Of a stretch of 41,169 bases of DNA, positions 17,901 through 31,702 are shown piece after piece. Numbering within the stretch: the first letter of the stretch is position 1; every line of letters begins with the position of its first letter. The stretch is taken from IMG/VR virus record IMGVR_UViG_3300032219_002585, positions 1 through 41,169 of that record; one strand, 5' to 3'. Origin of the DNA: a virus (taxonomy: Duplodnaviria; Caudoviricetes). A program made the position numbers and the translations under genes. The notes beneath the pieces were generated by a model, which ran no database searches, was not told where the DNA came from, and saw only the letters and a list, made by a program, of their open reading frames with translations.

Positions 17901-19778
17901 ATGTCATTATTAGCCCCAAGTAAACCAAAAAATTATTTGAATAACAAAGATATACTCAAAGAAATTCACGAAAGTAAAAATACTTATTGCTCATATGTGG
18001 ATTCTACCTCGCATAGGTATGACTTTATCGTGGACTTGCCCCAAGAACCAGTTGAAAAGGGGCTTCAATATGCGGGGAAATCTGAAACTTTATTAGAAGC
18101 AAGAGAAAATAGGGCCAACAGGATTAATCAAGAGACCAACCAAAAACTAACAGCAGATGATATTCCGGTCACTGATTTAGTATTCAGAATAATGACATGG
18201 GATCATATTCCCGTAGCACCCAAACAACCAAGAAAAGTTACCAAAAAGAAAACAGCGAAAGATATTTTTGAGTTTGATAATGATACTGACGAAGCCTTTT
18301 CAGATTTAGAAGATGTTTCAACTAGAGATGAAATAGACGATATGGTGCATGTCAAAGTCAACTTCCCACCATTCCAACATTTTAAAATTGATGATAATAA
18401 TACTTTCTATTGTATTGGCAAGTCACATTGGTTGGGCGATTTAGAGACGGGCGAGTTTTCAAAAGACCATGGCAATATAACTAATAAACTAGCAAAAATG
18501 TACATGATGCTATGTGAAAAATATGCCATGAAATATAATTGGCGTGGGTATTGTGTCGATGCCGAAACTCAAGCATTGACTGATACTGGCTGGGTCGATA
18601 TTAATTCTATCACCACAAATCATACTATATTAAGCTATAATGGTACTAATCTAGCCTGGAGCGCAGTTAAATCAATTTATCGAGGAGACTTTTCTGGTAA
18701 AATGTTCAAGCTGTCATCCCGTGGAATTGATTCACTGATCACCCCAGGCCACAAAATTGTAACTAAAAACGGATTAGTGCCAATTGAATTATTAAAGCAA
18801 TCAGACCAAGTTATAATCATGGCAGACTCCGTTGATGCTCCATCGCCCATCTATTCAGATAATTTAGTTGAACTGGTGGGATGGATTGTCGCTAATGGGC
18901 AATACGATCTGGATCAGTCTGGGATTAAGTCTATTACCATATACCAAAATCCTGGCGTTAAGGCTGACCGAATTAGAAATTGCCTTCAGCGGCTGGAGCT
19001 AAAATTTACTGAGGTCGCAGATAAAAACATCGCCTTCAGAATCGAGGAATCAGACAGCCAACATATTACCAAACTTATACCTAATAAAAATCTGACTATG
19101 GAATTTATTCTATCCCTGTCACAAGGGCAAAAGATTCTTCTGGTAGAAAATATGATAGATGGTGCCGGATGGCGACGTTGCGGGCGCCGCGGTTATACCG
19201 AGAAATCTCTATCTGGAATAGAAATGTTTCAGGCTCTATGTACTTTGTCTGGCATTAGGACTAGCACAGAGCCTGTAACAAATAGTATAAATTATGGAAA
19301 GTCAGTCGAATATTATAACGTGAATTTATATCATGATCGAGGGAATACCGCGCGCGGAGAATACATTGACCTTCACGGCGGTAAAAATTCTGGAAAATCC
19401 CATCCAGGCTTGGGTAAAATTACTCACCCCAACATACCAACTGAGCCATATGTTGGAAAAGTTTGGTGCCCAGAAACTGAATTTGGTTGTTTTATGGCGA
19501 AACGAAATGGTAAAATTTACCTTACAGGAAATACCTACAATGACGAAATGAAGGCTAGCGCTATTCTTCAACTTACATATGTAGGGTTACGCTTTAACGA
19601 GGCAAAGAGCGCTAATCCATTCGCCTACTACACTGCGGCGATTACTAATTCTTTTTGTCGAGTGCTAAATACTGAAAAGAAAAATCAAAACATTCGTGAC
19701 GATATATTAGAAATGAACAACCTAGCTCCCTCGTGGTCTAGACAAGGTACTGGGGGTTCAGGTACATATGATGAGTGA
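17901..19778 (+). CDS. gp55: Late-transcription sigma factor, T4 gp55-like, intein-containing (625 aa precursor, about 298 aa mature)
   Basis: NYLNNKDILKEI at the N-terminus. After removing the intein: KYNWRGY|TYNDEM...RFNEAKSANPFAYYTAAITNSFCRVLNTEKK, the gp55 signature. Confidence 0.88.
   Translation: MSLLAPSKPKNYLNNKDILKEIHESKNTYCSYVDSTSHRYDFIVDLPQEPVEKGLQYAGKSETLLEARENRANRINQETNQKLTADDIPVTDLVFRIMTWDHIPVAPKQPRKVTKKKTAKDIFEFDNDTDEAFSDLEDVSTRDEIDDMVHVKVNFPPFQHFKIDDNNTFYCIGKSHWLGDLETGEFSKDHGNITNKLAKMYMMLCEKYAMKYNWRGYCVDAETQALTDTGWVDINSITTNHTILSYNGTNLAWSAVKSIYRGDFSGKMFKLSSRGIDSLITPGHKIVTKNGLVPIELLKQSDQVIIMADSVDAPSPIYSDNLVELVGWIVANGQYDLDQSGIKSITIYQNPGVKADRIRNCLQRLELKFTEVADKNIAFRIEESDSQHITKLIPNKNLTMEFILSLSQGQKILLVENMIDGAGWRRCGRRGYTEKSLSGIEMFQALCTLSGIRTSTEPVTNSINYGKSVEYYNVNLYHDRGNTARGEYIDLHGGKNSGKSHPGLGKITHPNIPTEPYVGKVWCPETEFGCFMAKRNGKIYLTGNTYNDEMKASAILQLTYVGLRFNEAKSANPFAYYTAAITNSFCRVLNTEKKNQNIRDDILEMNNLAPSWSRQGTGGSGTYDE
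18552..19532 (+). mobile_element. Intein (327 aa, Cys218-Asn544) with degenerate LAGLIDADG domain
   Basis: Block A CVDAETQALTDTGW, block B LITPGHKIV (TxxH), block F KVWCPETEFGCF, terminal TGN followed by +1 Thr; LAGLIDADG-like blocks LVGWIVANG and VENMIDGAG. Confidence 0.92.
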
Positions 19779-19781
19779 TTA

Positions 19782-21416
19782 ATGAGTGAACTATTAAGAT
19801 TAGCTAACCTAAAACGACTTACTCCCAAAGACTTAGAATCTTCGGTGTTGGCTGATGTTTTTCAACAAATTAAATTATCACTGGGAATATCAAAACCAAG
19901 ACAAATATTGAGTCATGCTATTAGTGGGTTGGGTTCTATTCCAAAATGTCCATGTGGCTCTACTTTATCTTGGTCTGATGATCATAGAAGATATCGAGTA
20001 TATTGTAGCAATGCCTGTACCGCAACCTATTCAGTTGCTGCCAAAAAAGAAAAAAATAAAGAGTTATATGGCGTAGAATGGCATAGCCAACGTGCTGATT
20101 GGCTATCCAAAATGCGATCTACCAGTTTAAAGAAATACGGCACTGAGCATTATAGCAAAACACCTGAGCACAAGGAACGGACAAAAAAGAGTAATCAACG
20201 AAAATTTAATGTTGATTATCCCGCACAATCACCGCAAATACAAGTTAAAATGAAGAATACTTGTACTGAACGATATGGTGTAGATAACCCCGCCAAGGTA
20301 CAAGAAATCGCAGATCGGATTAAAGGTACATGCTTAGAAAAATATGGTGTGAGCAATCCAGCGCAAAAAAATTATTCACCGGAGGCAATCCATTTCTTAG
20401 AGGACGATGAGTTTTTTAAAACAGAATTAGATAGTTTTTCAGTGATTGACCTTTCTAAAAAATATGATATCTCAGTTAAACCTATATACGACAAAGTAAA
20501 CTTTCTTGGTATCAAACTAACGCATAGGGTCTCTAGTTCATTTGAGGTAGAAGTCACTGCCTTCATTTCATCTTTGTACCCGGATGAGGTTTTGACGAAT
20601 GATTGGACTATATTGAAAGACAAACAATTAGACATTTTGTTACCCAAATTGAGTCTAGCATTCGAGTGTAATGGTACATACTGGCACACTGAATTGTTGG
20701 GTAGAGGCAACAAATATCACTTATCCAAAACAGCTAGGTGTAGGGAAAACAACATTACTCTCGTCCATATCTGGGAGCATGATTGGTATCAAAAAAATGA
20801 CATTATGAAGTCTATGATTGCCAGTCGAGTGAACCATGTCTCGGTGAAGATACCAGCTAGAAAAACCCAAATCAAAGAGATCAGTCAACCAGATGCTGCC
20901 GTATTTTTTAAAAATAACCATTTACAAGGTAGAACATACCAAGCAGCAGTGAACCTGGGGTTATATTTTGCTGGGGAACTAGTTTCTGTCATGTCTTTTG
21001 GCTCTAATCGCTTCACTTCAAAGTATCAATGGGAATTGTTGCGGTTCGCAAATAAAATAAATACTACTGTAGTAGGAGGAGCTAGTAAATTATTCAAAAA
21101 TTTCTTGGAGCATCACAGTCCCGAATCAATAGTATCCTTTTCTGACAAAATGCATTCAACTGGGAAAATGTATGCCATCTTGGGATTTACTCATATGGGT
21201 ACTAGTAAACCTGGCTACAAATATACAAAAAACTATACCGATGTGTTCAACCGGCAGAAATTTCAGAAACACAAATTAAAAAAATCACTGCCCATTTTTG
21301 ATAGTTCTCTATCCGAAGCAGCCAATATGTTAAACAATGGATACACCCGTTTGTGGGATTGTGGACATGATGTATTTGTTTGGAGCAAAGTACCCAACAT
21401 CACTCAGGGCAAATAA
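19782..21416 (+). CDS. Free-standing putative homing endonuclease (Hef-like: Cys-rich N-terminus, KYG repeats, PD-(D/E)xK/Vsr-like nuclease, GNAT-like C-terminal domain), copy 1
   Basis: CPCG...YCSNAC, repeated KKYG/ERYG/EKYG units, SSFEVEV...LDILLP...AFECNGTYWH, WELLRF...GGASKLF...VSFSD...YAILGF, GYTRLWDCG. Confidence 0.75.
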   Translation: MSELLRLANLKRLTPKDLESSVLADVFQQIKLSLGISKPRQILSHAISGLGSIPKCPCGSTLSWSDDHRRYRVYCSNACTATYSVAAKKEKNKELYGVEWHSQRADWLSKMRSTSLKKYGTEHYSKTPEHKERTKKSNQRKFNVDYPAQSPQIQVKMKNTCTERYGVDNPAKVQEIADRIKGTCLEKYGVSNPAQKNYSPEAIHFLEDDEFFKTELDSFSVIDLSKKYDISVKPIYDKVNFLGIKLTHRVSSSFEVEVTAFISSLYPDEVLTNDWTILKDKQLDILLPKLSLAFECNGTYWHTELLGRGNKYHLSKTARCRENNITLVHIWEHDWYQKNDIMKSMIASRVNHVSVKIPARKTQIKEISQPDAAVFFKNNHLQGRTYQAAVNLGLYFAGELVSVMSFGSNRFTSKYQWELLRFANKINTTVVGGASKLFKNFLEHHSPESIVSFSDKMHSTGKMYAILGFTHMGTSKPGYKYTKNYTDVFNRQKFQKHKLKKSLPIFDSSLSEAANMLNNGYTRLWDCGHDVFVWSKVPNITQGK

Positions 21417-24590: not shown

Positions 24591-24598
24591 TATAAATA
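24591..24598 (+). promoter_or_regulatory. T4-type late promoter TATAAATA
   Basis: Exact T4 late consensus, 5 nt before ATG 24604. Confidence 0.7.
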
Positions 24599-24603
24599 TG
24601 ATC

Positions 24604-25152
24604 ATGCCATCTAAATCTAAAAATAAAGGAAGCTCATTTGAAAGGGAAGTCGCTACTTTTCTCTCAAAGCTATATAACGACAGTTTCGTCCGCGCACCAG
24701 GTTCTGGAGCATATGTGGGCGGATCTAATTCACGAAGAAAAGATTTTCTAAGTGAGGCGCAAATTAAATCCTTTAAGGGGGATATTGTCCCACCTGATTC
24801 TTGGATTAAATTCAATGCTGAGGCCAAAAGTTATGCCAATTTTCCTTTCCATCTACTGTACACAGGAGATTGTAAGGTATTAGATAATTGGTTAGGTCAA
24901 ATGATGGAAGTCGCTGAATCAAGTGACGTAAATATTCTAGTCATGAAGTTTAACAGGAAAGGTAAGTTTGTAGCAGTACAAAGCAGTTTGACGTGGATCA
25001 CTGATAATTTCACTTATTATTCATCTAAATCATATGGTGATTGGGTTATTATTGAATTTGAACAATTTTTTAAATTGAACAAAGACTTACTAAAAACTTA
25101 TTCTTCCGTTGCAACAATCGATATCACTGAGGAAGAATCAACAGATCAGTGA
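24604..25152 (+). CDS. Holliday junction resolvase (Hjc-like PD-(D/E)xK nuclease)
   Basis: SKNKGSSFEREVA...GDIV...AEAKSY pattern; follows gp47/gp46. Confidence 0.75.
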   Translation: MPSKSKNKGSSFEREVATFLSKLYNDSFVRAPGSGAYVGGSNSRRKDFLSEAQIKSFKGDIVPPDSWIKFNAEAKSYANFPFHLLYTGDCKVLDNWLGQMMEVAESSDVNILVMKFNRKGKFVAVQSSLTWITDNFTYYSSKSYGDWVIIEFEQFFKLNKDLLKTYSSVATIDITEEESTDQ

Positions 25153-25155
25153 GTA

Positions 25156-25218
25156 TCAAAGATCAATATGATTAATCATCCTGGGCATACCCAAGAGTTG
25201 ATAGTATATTGGTTTTGA
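25156..25218 (+). other. Long imperfect stem-loop just after the resolvase stop
   Basis: TCAAAGATCAATAT pairs with ATATTGGTTTTGA (one bulge, G-U pairs); apical TGGG-CATA-CCCA. Confidence 0.55.
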
Positions 25219-25243
25219 CATAAGCAAAGGGTTGCGTTAGATT
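25215..25243 (+). promoter_or_regulatory. Sigma70-type promoter pointing into the non-coding region
   Basis: TTGACA (25215-20), 17 nt, TAGATT (25238-43); no credible plus-strand gene follows for about 2 kb. Confidence 0.65.
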
Positions 25244-25249
25244 TAACAA

Positions 25250-25910
25250 GCCTATGAATTGCCTAGCGGTCCAATGAGTTTATGCAAATAGACATTCATG
25301 GACACGGTAGTCTGAATTTGTTTATGGGACGCGGGGTTAACGCCCTCGTGAGTGCTGTTTGGTCGGGGATCCTCGACTCTCCTTGAGCCAGCCGAGGTAA
25401 GGCTCGTCGCCGGCGGATCTGGAGTTAGGATGATTGAATACAATCATCGAATACCGACAGGGCACTCGACATAGATTGCGAACCCTGAACAAGCCTATAA
25501 CTATCCTGTCTTGATGTTATAGGATGTGCGTTGCGGATGTGGACGGGAGTCCGCTATATAGAAGAACCCGATACTATATAGCACCTATTGATTTAATAGG
25601 GATGAACCTGTCCTTTCATGGATTGTTATATAAGTAGTGACCAAGTTGAACTTGGTCGGCCAAGTTGAACTTGGTTTTGGTCAAGGTGACTTGGCTTCTC
25701 AATCTGCATCAACTACGGCCCAGTAATACCTTACCGAGCAACCGGTGGCGGTCGATGGCGAAAAAATGGCTAATCACTGTGGGAAAGACAGCAGAAGGAT
25801 GACGGTCCCGGATAACCCGGAAGTAAATCCCTGGTAGTGCTTTCCGGCACTACCATGGACTCTAATCTGGATGATGATTACGCCCCTGAGGCGTGCAGCA
25901 CAGGAGTGCT
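25250..25910 (+). ncRNA. Candidate large structured non-coding RNA (about 660 nt), family not recognised
   Basis: Visibly GC-richer than the flanks, more than a dozen stems, GNRA tetraloops (GCAA, GGGA, GTGA), G-U wobbles that work only on the plus strand, nested and long-range pairings, upstream promoter. Confidence 0.65.
25639..25695. repeat. Tandem palindromic repeats CCAAGTTGAACTTGGT x2 plus a degenerate third copy
   Basis: Exact 16-mers at 25641-25656 and 25660-25675; GTCAAG-GTGA-CTTGGC at 25680-25695. Confidence 0.85.
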
Positions 25911-25958
25911 AGGTTTAGTGTTAAAGACAATTGGATTAGCTCTTTATAGTTAAAAAGA

Positions 25959-26055
25959 ATACCAAATTTGCTATAAGAGCGCAAGCGCAGTGAAGCGCTC
26001 TGGTGCGCGAAAGCGCAATAGCAAATTTAAGGTATAGATGATCGGTAGATCATCT
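25959..26055. other. Three-way-junction inverted-repeat element plus adjacent hairpin
   Basis: AAATTTGCTAT (25964-74) / ATAGCAAATTT (26018-28) encloses AGAGCGC/GCGCTCT and TGCGC-GAAA-GCGCA; then AGATGATC-GGTA-GATCATCT (26036-55). Confidence 0.75.
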
Positions 26056-26174
26056 TGATATCACAGTAATCTTTAGAATAAGTAAGATAGATAGGATATA
26101 CAAATTTGTTGGTTTAATGAATATCCATGGCCATTGTAAACAAAACTCTAATATTACCAGCCCATAAATAACTC

Positions 26175-26218
26175 CATGGCTTAATAGCCATGAATATGGG
26201 GAGCACTCTCCCCATATT
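26175..26218. terminator. Two abutting perfect hairpins between convergent units (terminator or small RNA)
   Basis: CATGGCT-TAAT-AGCCATG and AATATGGGGAG-CACT-CTCCCCATATT; no clear U-tract. Confidence 0.45.
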
Positions 26219-26249
26219 AGTTACATCTGATTTTTAGACTAATGTGTGA

Positions 26250-26426
26250 TTAGAAAAATGGCATCTTAGTAGCTTTTGCCGTTTCCAAATTCGATTCAAT
26301 CAGTTCTTTAATGTGCTGCCTTTCCTGCCAGGACATGTTTAGGATGTCATTATAAGAAGCTCCGCCTCTCATATACCATGAAAAACTGAATGCTTGTTTT
26401 TTGATCTCCACGCATTCTGTTTCCAT
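26250..26426 (-). CDS. Small baseplate hub/tail assembly protein, gp51-like (58 aa); probably also expressed as the -1 frameshift extension of the upstream gene
   Basis: Not in the ORF track. METECVEIKKQAFSFSWYMRGGASYNDILNMSWQERQHIKELIESNLETAKATKMPFF; ILNMSxxER motif; frame open back to the slippery site at 26486. Confidence 0.75.
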   Translation of the reverse strand: METECVEIKKQAFSFSWYMRGGASYNDILNMSWQERQHIKELIESNLETAKATKMPFF

Positions 26427-26473: not shown

Positions 26474-27304
26474 TTAACCGAAAAAATCGGTTGCGTTTAT
26501 CACCACCTCTTGGTCATACTTATTACTACATCCTGGGCAAACAACCTTTAAGGGTTTTATCGTGGTGGAATTTTTTAGCTCTGCGTTATAATCTCTTATG
26601 GATGTAAAAGTCTTTTTGTCACAATTTCTTAAGTATTCTAATATGTAATTCGAATCTGTTACGGATTCACTCTCAGTTTCAATGTACTCAATAGTTGTAC
26701 TTAATATTTTCATTGTAAGCTCAGTGATCATTTTCAATGCTTCTTGACTTTTTTCAATTTTGATCTTATCATTTGTTTCGTTTTCAATTTGACTAAAGAT
26801 TTTTTGAACTTCAAATTGGTTAAGATTTACCGCATTCATTTCTTTGTACTTAAGTGGTCTAAATTTTATCTTTAGTCCATTTATCTCTAATAGAACACTA
26901 TAATCAGCAGCATTCATACCAGACAATAACGAAATTAAATTCACATTGTATGTTGCGATTTCCTCACATTTAGTACATTTCGATTGGATCTCATAGTCGT
27001 TGCCTTGAGTCGCTGTTTTAATACCTACTAATATGGTATCAAAGTCTACACTAGTTATTTCATACGGATTTTTAATATTAGGTACGCAACTCTTAATTAG
27101 CTCTGATATAGCATCTCCGTTGAATAATGCATCAGGTGTTTTCGTAGTGATTTCATCAATGGCAGTCATGGGATATATAGGCAATTCACCATTTTTTGGT
27201 AAGTCTAATACATCGGGTCCATAGCCAGTGCCACCGCTGGGTAATTTTAGATAAATCGATGGTCTTCTAAAATATTGTCGTAGTGGGTTATTTGGATCTG
27301 ACAT
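26474..27304 (-). CDS. gp26: Baseplate hub assembly protein / tail chaperone, gp26-like (276 aa)
   Basis: YLKLPSGG, IYPMTAIDEI, two CxxC motifs (CTKC, CPGC), IKFRPLKY, terminal DFFG; divergent from the tape-measure gene. Confidence 0.72.
   Translation of the reverse strand: MSDPNNPLRQYFRRPSIYLKLPSGGTGYGPDVLDLPKNGELPIYPMTAIDEITTKTPDALFNGDAISELIKSCVPNIKNPYEITSVDFDTILVGIKTATQGNDYEIQSKCTKCEEIATYNVNLISLLSGMNAADYSVLLEINGLKIKFRPLKYKEMNAVNLNQFEVQKIFSQIENETNDKIKIEKSQEALKMITELTMKILSTTIEYIETESESVTDSNYILEYLRNCDKKTFTSIRDYNAELKNSTTIKPLKVVCPGCSNKYDQEVVINATDFFG
26480..26486 (-). other. Candidate -1 ribosomal frameshift site T TTT TTC
   Basis: GAT TTT TTC GGT TAA at the gene end is an in-frame X XXY YYZ heptamer; the -1 frame is open for 76 more sense codons. 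Confidence 0.65.
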
Positions 27305-29940: not shown

Positions 29941-29974
29941 AATATTGATGCCAAGGTGAAAGCATAAATAGTTG

Positions 29975-31702
29975 ATGAGGGAAGAGCTATTAAAAATTTG
30001 TGGATCGCGCCCAATAGTGGGTATACCCAGGTGGATTAAAGCTGCCCGACCACAGCTTTTTGAAAAAATTCAAGAAGAAACACGAGATTACCCCACAAAA
30101 AATTTCATGGAGCAAGTATACATTATCATTAATGGAGCACCACCCAAATGTAAATGTGGTAACTATCGGGTATTCAATACCTTTATATTGGGATATCGAA
30201 TTGGGTGTGTATTAGGCAATGCCTGTTTAGATGTAAGTGAAAATCGGACGGAAAAGCAAAAAATAACTCTACTTAGAAAATTTGGTGTATCAAACGCAGC
30301 AAAATTAGAAATAGTCCAACAAAAAATAAAAGAAACCAATTTACAAAAATATGGCACAGCACACCATAGTCAAAATGCTCTAGTGAAGGAAAAATCCAGA
30401 CTCACTCGAAATTCAAGAACACCTGAACAAAAAGAAAAAACAAAAGAAAGGGCAAGAAATACAAATTTGAAGAAATATGATGTCCCACATCACATGAACA
30501 TGAAAGCTCAGCAGCAAAAATTAATAAACACCAATCTATTAAAGTATGGCGTTGAATTTCCACTTCAAAACCCCGTGTCATTAGCCAAGATGAAAACTTC
30601 TTGGGAAAAAAATGATATAGCTCAAGTTAACTCTAACAGAAAACAAACCTTAATAGAAAAATATGGGGTAGATGCTGCCAGTAAAATTTCCTTACCAGAA
30701 TCCACTATTAAAATTTTGGCATCAGCCCATGATTTTCGAGCATTCGTCGAGGGCAAAGAACGTAAACAGGTAATGGACACATTAAAAATTCACGAACATA
30801 CTCTGTACCTCTATGCTAAAAAGTACGATGCTAGACATTTATTCAAGCGCCCGCTTACCAGTCAATTTGAAATTGAAGTAGCCAACTTTTTAACTACACT
30901 AGAAGTCGATTTTATTCAAAATAATAGGGCTGTCATAGCACCTTTGGAACTTGATTTTTACATTCCCATGTCTAACTTAGCAATAGAATGTTGTGGGCTA
31001 TATTGGCACAGTGAAAATTCGTCAGGTCGAAACAGAAACTATCATCATACTAAGTATAAAAAGTGTGCTGATTTAGGGATAAATCTGCTAACTATCTTTG
31101 AAGACGACTGGCAAAATAAAAAAGAAAAGATTCAAAATAGAATTAAACTGAGTGTAGAAAAGTCTAAAACTTACGTGTACGCTAGAAAAACAATAGTGAA
31201 AGAAATTGATTCCCCTACTGCTAAATACTTCACTGATGAGTATCATATCCAATCTAGTTCGCCAGCTAAAATTTCATTAGGTCTTTATCACGAGGACCAA
31301 TTGATTTCAGTAATGACTTTCAACAAAGCTAGGTACAATAAGAAGTATGACTATGAAATTGTTAGGTATTGCTCCAACAAAAACATTGTGGGTGGGTCCA
31401 GTAAATTACTGAAATTTTTTGTAGACAAATACTCTCCAAAAAATATCATTTCGTACAACGACAATAGGTATTTCACTGGTAAGGTGTATGAAACATTAGG
31501 TTTCACTCAGCAAAAGACTAACGTGGGTTATTGCTACACTGACTATAAAAAACGATTTGATCGATTAAATTTTCAAAAACACAAATTAGTAGAACAAGGA
31601 CACGACAACAGTAAATCAGAGTGGAATATCATGCAGGAATTAGGCTTTGACCGTATATGGGACTGTGGACAAACTACTTGGGCATTGCATCTTCGAGACT
31701 AA
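29975..31702 (+). CDS. Free-standing putative homing endonuclease (Hef-like), copy 2
   Basis: CKCG, KFG/KYG repeats, SQFEIEV...ELDFYIP...AIECCGLYWHSE, YEIVRYC...GGSSKLL...ISYND...YETLGF, GFDRIWDCG; own TAAATA at 29965-70. Confidence 0.75.
   Translation: MREELLKICGSRPIVGIPRWIKAARPQLFEKIQEETRDYPTKNFMEQVYIIINGAPPKCKCGNYRVFNTFILGYRIGCVLGNACLDVSENRTEKQKITLLRKFGVSNAAKLEIVQQKIKETNLQKYGTAHHSQNALVKEKSRLTRNSRTPEQKEKTKERARNTNLKKYDVPHHMNMKAQQQKLINTNLLKYGVEFPLQNPVSLAKMKTSWEKNDIAQVNSNRKQTLIEKYGVDAASKISLPESTIKILASAHDFRAFVEGKERKQVMDTLKIHEHTLYLYAKKYDARHLFKRPLTSQFEIEVANFLTTLEVDFIQNNRAVIAPLELDFYIPMSNLAIECCGLYWHSENSSGRNRNYHHTKYKKCADLGINLLTIFEDDWQNKKEKIQNRIKLSVEKSKTYVYARKTIVKEIDSPTAKYFTDEYHIQSSSPAKISLGLYHEDQLISVMTFNKARYNKKYDYEIVRYCSNKNIVGGSSKLLKFFVDKYSPKNIISYNDNRYFTGKVYETLGFTQQKTNVGYCYTDYKKRFDRLNFQKHKLVEQGHDNSKSEWNIMQELGFDRIWDCGQTTWALHLRD

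Follow-up and report, generated by a model that had tools for sequence, protein, structure and literature searches.

What occupies the roughly 1.1 kb without a credible gene in an otherwise tightly packed stretch of phage DNA? The window (the whole stretch of 41,169 nucleotides analysed here) is a fragment of a T4-like phage. Among the genes on its plus strand are those for a late sigma factor, for SbcD- and SbcC-like nucleases and for a RusA-like resolvase, and beyond the slot lie a convergent 58-aa ORF and baseplate hub, then the portal. The resolvase is the last gene of the late-sigma/gp47/gp46 run, and the slot that follows directly is bounded as follows:

24598..25152, plus strand: RusA-like Holliday junction resolvase gene (PHROG 244)
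26250-26426, minus strand: convergent 58-aa ORF, bounding the slot
26474-27304, minus strand: convergent baseplate-hub gene (PHROG 150), bounding the slot

A first-pass annotation, made from the letters alone, had read this gap as a large, ornate non-coding RNA with its own promoter, and had suggested an Rfam scan and a covariation test on aligned homologs as checks. It was right that no credible gene is present: the only ORFs in the gap (25153-26249) are two short ones on the minus strand, 63 and 51 aa long. The region is also GC-richer than its surroundings, as had been claimed (49% over 25250-25910 against 37.7% for the window), and 25250-25910 folds better than shuffled controls (z -6.4 on the plus strand, -5.2 on the minus). 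The Rfam scan of the window gave no match at the gathering threshold and chance matches only at E <= 10, with the GOLLD, ROOL and OLE models all unmatched. ARAGORN found no tRNA or tmRNA in the window, the RNase P models had no match there, and neither did the models of group I or II introns or of small ribozymes at E <= 10, in agreement with the statement that this is no tRNA, tmRNA, RNase P or self-splicing intron. Short motifs that by eye recall RNase P, 16S rRNA or group I cores were set aside, as the covarying pairings differ and Rfam finds none of these RNAs. An assembly artefact is ruled out by an IMG/VR contig 99.9% identical to the window over 1,100 nt.

Relatives of the RNA, here called type I, were gathered by several routes. 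The first came from two contigs fetched via the resolvase, both with shorter RNA copies. A 16-base pattern then returned 119 loci (111 homologous by nhmmer), a looser pattern yielded 79 homologs in 120 loci out of an estimated 660 matching stretches, and among 80 loci fetched via the 58-aa ORF the RNA was present in 64, the other 16 being truncated or from another lineage. From 95 distinct full-length copies, 74 remained at <92% identity; these non-redundant homologs of the core (25362-25874, plus strand) come from contigs of large T4-like phages, up to 525 kb, and have a mean identity of 62%. I estimate that IMG/VR contains several hundred type I stretches. Each of five large contigs carries a single copy. 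A pattern scan of GTDB gave four matches, none homologous, and BLASTN of the window and of the type I, IIa and IIb RNAs (the type II subtypes are described below) against cultured phages gave no real match and thus no cultured carrier, nor did IIb match plasmids (the best chance match in these searches was one of 28 nt, E 0.1). The nearest cultured relatives of the window's hub protein, at about 30% identity, are jumbo myophages such as Phosso, Atu_ph07, PA5oct and PBECO4. Two of the RNA-bearing genomes, G002 and G003, each encode a permuted tmRNA followed by a tRNA with a CUA anticodon (L225 1980-3482; L230 3288-3786), as well as arrays with 45 and 34 tRNA calls, respectively (L218-L219; L241).

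The slot is strongly kept. The resolvase lies directly upstream of the RNA in 62 of the 63 type I loci with enough flank, with the RNA usually starting no more than about 100 nt from the resolvase match, and the 58-aa ORF lies downstream in 64 of 64 with flank, although about a third of these were fetched by that very ORF. The RNA sits between intact genes and interrupts none. Several other features of this neighbourhood deserve mention. A TTTTTTC run near 26486 on the minus strand lies just before the stop of the hub ORF (26474-27304), and since a shift at this point leaves an open frame that runs on into the 58-aa ORF, the two are likely joined by a -1 frameshift. The late sigma factor ORF (17901-19778) is split by about 325 aa without a match to sigma profiles, probably an intein, and two related homing-endonuclease genes (PHROG 3339/559; 19782-21416 and 29972-31702) are inserted in core operons. 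The remaining part of the gap, 26040-26250, folds better than its shuffles (z -2.7 on the plus strand, -3.4 on the minus) and includes a perfect hairpin of 11 bp (26193-26218) that may terminate the convergent operon. At the 3' end of the resolvase gene, a motif GACACCA[A/C]GTC is conserved at the nucleotide level in 59 of 64 type I loci, 50-105 nt before helix H2 (for example L002 3513-3523); it is single-copy in G002 and G003 and absent from the window, where a sigma-70-like site is found instead.

Does the RNA have a conserved fold? Covariation was scored with a G-test and average-product correction against a tree-based null of 20 replicates. In the 74-sequence type I alignment, 18 column pairs exceeded all 20 replicates: fifteen are 90-100% canonical, two are cross-terms between neighbours and one is an identity pair, to which I return below. 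RNAalifold predicts 58 pairs, 43 with two-sided change. In a 76-pair model, whose totals are lowered by four mis-registered pairs (columns 488, 541-543), 92.4% of cells pair compared with 79.8% in shuffled and 36-42% in slid alignments, and 53 of the 76 pairs show two-sided change against 35.8 when shuffled. The aligned homologs thus display compensatory covariation beyond the phylogenetic background. The following elements make up the fold up to the 3' repeats:

25362..25448, plus strand: conserved 5' domain, identified by covariation and by cross-subtype HMM matches down to E 1e-6
25362-25377, plus strand: hairpin H1, common to subtype IIa
25379-25424, plus strand: hairpin H2, common to subtype IIa
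25429-25448, plus strand: hairpin H3, identified by covariation
25452..25795, plus strand: conserved core with a four-way junction (H4-H7) and pseudoknots
25452-56/25743-47, plus strand: H4, four-way junction
25458-87, plus strand: H5, four-way junction
25489-25527, plus strand: H6, four-way junction
25530-34/25738-42, plus strand: H7, four-way junction
25506-11/25786-91, plus strand: pseudoknot PK1, 6 bp, 97.7% paired, 5 compensated
25712-16, plus strand: invariant ACTAC
25719-21/25781-83, plus strand: pseudoknot PK2, 3 bp, one pair at E 0
25750-78, plus strand: H10

Three stems that had been read by eye are backed by this covariation: GATGATTG/CAATCATC is H3, CCTATAAC/GTTATAGG is H6, and TGGTAGTGC/GCACTACCA is H13, a hairpin further downstream. 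By contrast, GAGTGCT/GGCACTC and GTCGG/CCGAC, proposed as closing stems, are not supported, as the homologs place those bases in the covarying H1, H4 and H5. Both pseudoknots had been missed, as had the repeats and the downstream hairpins described below. A base triple of 25452, 25747 and 25730 is no more than suggestive: in 60 of 74 sequences the third base is the same as the 5' partner, at E 2.5-3.6 against the null.

The alignment also shows which strand is functional. Leaving out the four mis-registered pairs and two H8 pairs, G-U combinations fill 346 cells and A-C combinations 34, and the H3 loops are GNRA in 40 sequences and GNYA in one. These asymmetries indicate that the functional strand is the plus strand and that it behaves as RNA, as the first-pass annotation had supposed. 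Judged from this comparative evidence, the core is a conserved, structured, plus-strand non-coding RNA element, and the description of it as large, ornate and structured, without an Rfam match, is upheld by homologs and Rfam scans alike.

The copy in the window is nevertheless a peculiar one. Judging by the alignment, it is an expanded variant, and the most expanded of the 74. The following are not in the conserved core:

25215..25243, plus strand: sigma-70-like promoter pattern TTGACA-17-TAGATT, not a feature of the family
25250..25350, plus strand: 5' extension, a long GCAA-capped hairpin and a short hairpin
25538..25710, plus strand: multi-hairpin expansion of H8, about 170 nt, with three hairpins (z -4.2)

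The GCAA-capped hairpin folds well on the plus strand (z -4.0) and not on the minus (z -0.3), and the homologs have A/T-rich sequence where the window has this extension. The H8 expansion occurs in the window alone among the 74 aligned sequences and includes a 19-nt tandem duplication that a close relative's contig lacks. Two small 3' hairpins of the window copy, ACGCC/GGCGT and AGCAC/GTGCT, had been noted at first pass and are indeed there, also outside the core. Because all these hairpins lie outside it, they are beyond the reach of covariation. The length of about 660 nt given in the first-pass annotation therefore suits the window's expanded copy only, whereas the conserved RNA is about 370 nt. 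The promoter fared similarly: TTGACA-17-TAGATT is present at the place named, but the pattern is not enriched (10 found against 12.1 in shuffles), and a sigma-70 pattern within 150 nt upstream of H2 occurs in only one of 64 loci. The window's own site, 164 nt upstream of H2 and so just beyond that scan range, is a possible private promoter of this copy.

Some loci at first seemed to lack the RNA. In these, extra genes have been inserted, and then the same tail follows behind a different non-coding stretch of about 450 nt. A pattern made from that stretch returned 120 loci out of an estimated 1,000, which suggests about 1,000 such type II stretches in IMG/VR. From 105 full-length copies, 94 remained at <92% identity and 88 were kept, six having been dropped with no neighbour above 55%. 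They divide into subtypes IIa (47) and IIb (41), both with covarying, interleaved helices like PK1 and PK2. Types I and IIa share H1-H2, with six of 75 and four of 47 sequences, respectively, matching at E < 0.01 (best 1e-6) and no match among reversed decoys, and IIa and IIb share their 3' half (41 of 41 at E < 0.01). Profiles of type I and IIb do not match each other directly, a search with the type I core model did not recover type II, and the window itself scores only weakly against the IIa profile (best E 0.24).

The IIb end of this chain leads to a known motif. The Rfam model RF01718, Polynucleobacter-1, matches the 5' ~135 nt of IIb at 119-120 bits (in two of the nine loci scanned) and has no match in the window or in type I or IIa loci. 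On the strength of that match, Polynucleobacter-1 is the 5' domain of subtype IIb, and the window RNA would be linked to it indirectly, through type I, IIa and IIb. This motif was described in 2010 from freshwater, with 16 members, and was listed as probably cis-regulatory in the available portion of Weinberg et al. (2010, PMC2864571). Its Rfam model, of 141 positions, excludes the pseudoknot core, the repeats and the tail. Subtype IIb, which carries the motif, has the same slot and tail as the rest of the superfamily of types I and II. The proposal of a new class therefore has to be qualified: Rfam has no match, but an indirect chain of homology would tie the RNA to a listed motif. What the analysis of the window would add is this chain joining the subtypes.

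Around type II RNAs the upstream gene differs: a different small ORF, putatively GIY-YIG, is found in 42 of 47 loci and the resolvase in three of 47. Slot and tail are therefore kept while the RNA domains and upstream gene are swapped. In the type II lineage (L139, L140, L142, L161 and L175, from 3177 onward) the 58-aa ORF is followed by an insertion of three or four small genes. On L161 (4975-5460, minus strand; the same contig as L376) the slot holds yet another variant, with its own repeated word flanking a hairpin, the same tail and no Rfam match. The corresponding slot in Phosso (L203 10233-11246) is a long ORF-poor gap beside an RNase HI gene, with a GAA-loop hairpin, and that in Paride (L205 7525-9039) is also a long ORF-poor gap, with a perfect TTGACA-17-TATAAT at its start. 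Neither the profile nor the covariance model of type I matches the syntenic gaps of Phosso, Atu_ph07 and Paride.

A fixed place between two convergent operons, with no family-wide promoter, is what one would expect of a cis-acting 3' UTR, terminator or stability element. However, the RNA is far more elaborate than such elements, it stays while the flanking genes change, and the repeats described next would be left unexplained, so that I consider this the least probable of the readings discussed here.

All subtypes end alike, with direct repeats flanking a hairpin, then an A/T-rich tract, then GNA-loop hairpins of DNA type on the non-template strand. In the window these are:

25797-25802, plus strand: additional GGATGA near repeat 1
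25810..25815, plus strand: repeat 1, GGATAA, the structurally aligned copy
25832..25855, plus strand: hairpin H13 between the repeats, 98.9% of cells paired, 3 pairs with compensatory change
25869..25874, plus strand: repeat 2, GGATGA, 59 nt after repeat 1, where the conserved RNA ends
25915..25962, plus strand: A/T-rich tract, a candidate unwinding element from its sequence
25963..26028, plus strand: branched hairpin module, its loop C-GAAA-G, the counterpart of the homologs' twin GNA-loop hairpins

The repeats are the most unusual feature of the RNA. In type II, a 7-mer is identical in both places in 86 of 86 loci (two of the 88, without an anchor, were left out), in 10 sequence variants and at a spacing of 47-61 nt; in 2000 shuffles the mean number identical was 12.9 and the maximum 24. 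Each variable position changed 4-8 times on the trees, equally in both copies, compared with 5-16 changes for ordinary base pairs. No complementary third column appeared among the top 48 covarying pairs of type II, and no reverse-complement copy occurs at a shared position in type II flanks of up to 1.5 kb, the 13 matches being scattered. In type I, the repeat amounts to 4-6 nt plus one upstream base. Here the identity pair (columns 674/747) stands at E 0 and the repeats co-deviate, with 15 of 18 non-consensus loci sharing at least 5 nt between them against a background of 44%. The window's aligned copies differ in one base, and in the window and L184 the longest repeat match differs from the aligned copy. 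The window pair, GGATAA/GGATGA, is the type II word with one mismatch. DNA contigs over this region, with next to no independent coverage, show no joint between the repeats. From its sequence, then, the window appears to contribute the most expanded aligned copy, a possible private promoter and a type II-like repeat on a type I core.

Two sequences held identical with no complementary partner in the RNA are what would result if the RNA of one copy paired with the DNA complement of the other. The same pattern is also expected of a template RNA that is copied with a jump between the repeats, in the manner of telomerase or DRT2, or of a core for realignment or recombination at the DNA level that works only if the repeats are identical, and in type I the resolvase gene adjoins the RNA. 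I regard both as very improbable. RVT_1 is absent from five of five genomes, although a very divergent enzyme could be missed, and no reverse transcriptase was found among the 113 of 139 G002 ORFs of 230-900 aa that were scanned; furthermore, five contigs hold no tandem H13 arrays, and the resolvase is upstream in just those three type II loci.

The repeats might instead be the reaction sites of a ribozyme, whether self-processing, circularising or RNase-P-like. Its compact conserved core, possible base triple, duplicated CTAC and a length similar to RNase P RNA, in genomes without recognisable RNase P RNA (RF00010 is absent from five of five), all suit this idea. However, the Rfam scans described above found no group I or II intron, RNase P or small ribozyme at E <= 10, no guide complementary to the repeats is present and no gene is interrupted, and I find a ribozyme improbable.

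A C-GNA-G or C-GNNA-G hairpin is found on the RNA strand in 63 of 74 type I loci, but never on the opposite strand or in the 65 control stretches; it lies about 80-140 nt past H13, after 40 nt that average 76% A+T in genomes of 59-63% (a difference of composition only), and most of its loops are GNA triloops (53 counted). In type II the hairpin is on the RNA strand in 71 of 88 loci and on the other in 12. Such GNA/GNNA hairpins are not unique to the slot, with nine each in G002 and G003. C-GNA-G and C-GNNA-G loops are unusually stable as DNA and occur at the priming sites of phage G4 and ssiA, according to the available text of PMC13037366. Loops inside the RNA follow RNA rules and the tail hairpins follow these DNA rules, so the window's module at 25963..26028 would be a DNA mini-hairpin on the non-template strand.

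This tail also weighs on the most serious competitor, a trans-acting structural RNA of the GOLLD, ROOL or OLE kind that forms an oligomer, a cage or a protein scaffold. Symmetric homo-base pairs, or a pair of identical protein sites, would then keep the repeats identical, and the RNA would have the hairpins as its 3' tail or terminator. In favour are its size, its pseudoknots and its invariant unpaired bases, OLE offers a symmetric helix of A-A pairs between chains (in the available part of PMC12286853), and the 34-45 tRNAs plus tmRNA of these phages indicate that they invest in RNA. Yet a symmetric helix between the repeats had to be rejected as a full explanation, since it accounts for one identical position and not three, and protein sites would need frequent three-way co-change. 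The tRNA array is about 50 kb from the RNA in G002, and tail loops that are mostly GNA triloops are a DNA-type motif. I therefore think a scaffold unlikely, while taking it more seriously than the readings above.

The reading that I favour, tentatively and by analogy, is that the RNA is a putative R-loop primer at a replication origin, as in ColE1 and T4, for which such origins are precedents (PMC4412123; PMC3016281, each as far as its available text goes). It falls a little short of probable. What it builds on is established here: how the RNA folds and from which strand, its slot and copy number, the identity of its repeats and the polarity of its tail. RNA polymerase would read through from the resolvase run or, in the window phage, might start at the sigma-70-like site, so that transcription is itself a supposition. 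The RNA would then fold into its junction-and-pseudoknot core, a step whose fold is backed by covariation, with H13 setting repeat 1 beside repeat 2. Since both repeats have the same sequence, repeat 1 of the RNA could base-pair with the template DNA that underlies repeat 2. This would nucleate a persistent RNA-DNA hybrid, in much the way that ColE1 RNA II uses an rG stretch to pair with a dC stretch in its template. The hybrid would grow into the A/T-rich tract and displace the plus DNA strand, on which the GNA-loop mini-hairpins would fold and may mark the loading site of helicase or primase. Finally, the RNA 3' end, as made or trimmed, would prime the phage family-B DNA polymerase. The role of the invariant core is likely either to bind a replication protein or to process that end. 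In this scheme I infer from sequence that the RNA is transcribed, forms the hybrid, primes synthesis and leads to protein loading.

Several observations fit an R-loop primer. The tail hairpins lie only on the strand that an R-loop would displace, the repeats are identical, each of the five large contigs has a single copy, and neither slot nor tail is lost when RNA domains and upstream gene are exchanged. Among the proteins encoded by G002 are a family-B polymerase, a DnaB-like helicase, a Toprim protein and a 5'-3' exonuclease. The main switch of gene direction is about 5.5 kb from the RNA in two complete genomes, which count as one observation because they are syntenic. Against an origin, GC skew tracks gene direction, and its detrended minimum lies 39 kb from the RNA in G002 and 7 kb in G003. 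Against a primer, the type I repeat is short and weaker than that of type II, and the invariant core is more elaborate than a T4 origin requires; according to the part of PMC3016281 available, R-loops at T4 origins form without dependence on sequence. RNase H (PF00075) is absent from five of five genomes, so that any trimming would fall to an enzyme of the host or to the 5'-3' exonuclease. TROVE domains are likewise absent from all five.

A wider claim, which I hold still more tentatively, is that a T4-like jumbo-phage clade may start replication with a dedicated, ribozyme-sized RNA whose core loads or processes for the replisome and whose twin repeats anchor the RNA to its own gene. There would then be a superfamily of origin RNAs with exchangeable domains, in which Polynucleobacter-1 is a 5' fragment and the window has the most expanded copy of those compared here. 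Little is known of how jumbo phages begin replication, and few large ornate RNAs have been assigned a function. A primer role, if true, would give one to an orphan motif of 2010. Should the primer idea prove wrong, the identity covariation of two repeats that lack a complement would still be an uncommon kind of constraint for an RNA, and its fold is well suited to cryo-EM. A literature search that covered few subscription papers found no description of the RNA and no function for Polynucleobacter-1. The RNA is undescribed in the available text and supplements of Fremin et al. (2023, PMC10690425), supplementary files 1, 2 and 4 aside, which may hold fragments, and none of the four ncRNAs and 31 promoter rows of table S3 in the accessible material on PA5oct (PMC7318152) falls in the RNA slot.

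How does this RNA compare with known systems? Like GOLLD, ROOL and OLE, of which the first two are phage-borne (PMC12286853, in its available part), it is large, pseudoknotted and of unknown function, but it differs in having no Rfam match, a smaller core, a place away from the tRNA island and a DNA-type hairpin tail. The tail resembles the DNA mini-hairpins GCGNAGC/GCGNNAGC of phage G4 and RSF1010 ssiA, which are described, in the text available from PMC13037366, with C-GNA-G and C-GNNA-G loops and the same strand specificity. Here the stems are longer, the hairpins follow an RNA gene in a double-stranded jumbo-phage genome, and recognition by primase is putative. With ColE1 and T4 origins no sequence relation was found (IIb against plasmids, Rfam). 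The anchor here would be a mixed 5-7-nt repeat as opposed to the G run of ColE1, no phage RNase HI was found, and a conserved folded RNA does not feature at T4 origins in the accounts consulted (PMC4412123, PMC3016281, both in part). The order of events would nonetheless be alike: at ColE1 RNA II and at T4 oriF and oriG, those accounts describe a transcript that pairs with the template, an A/T-rich stretch that unwinds and a displaced strand that loads helicase and primase, and it is this course that I propose for the RNA described here.
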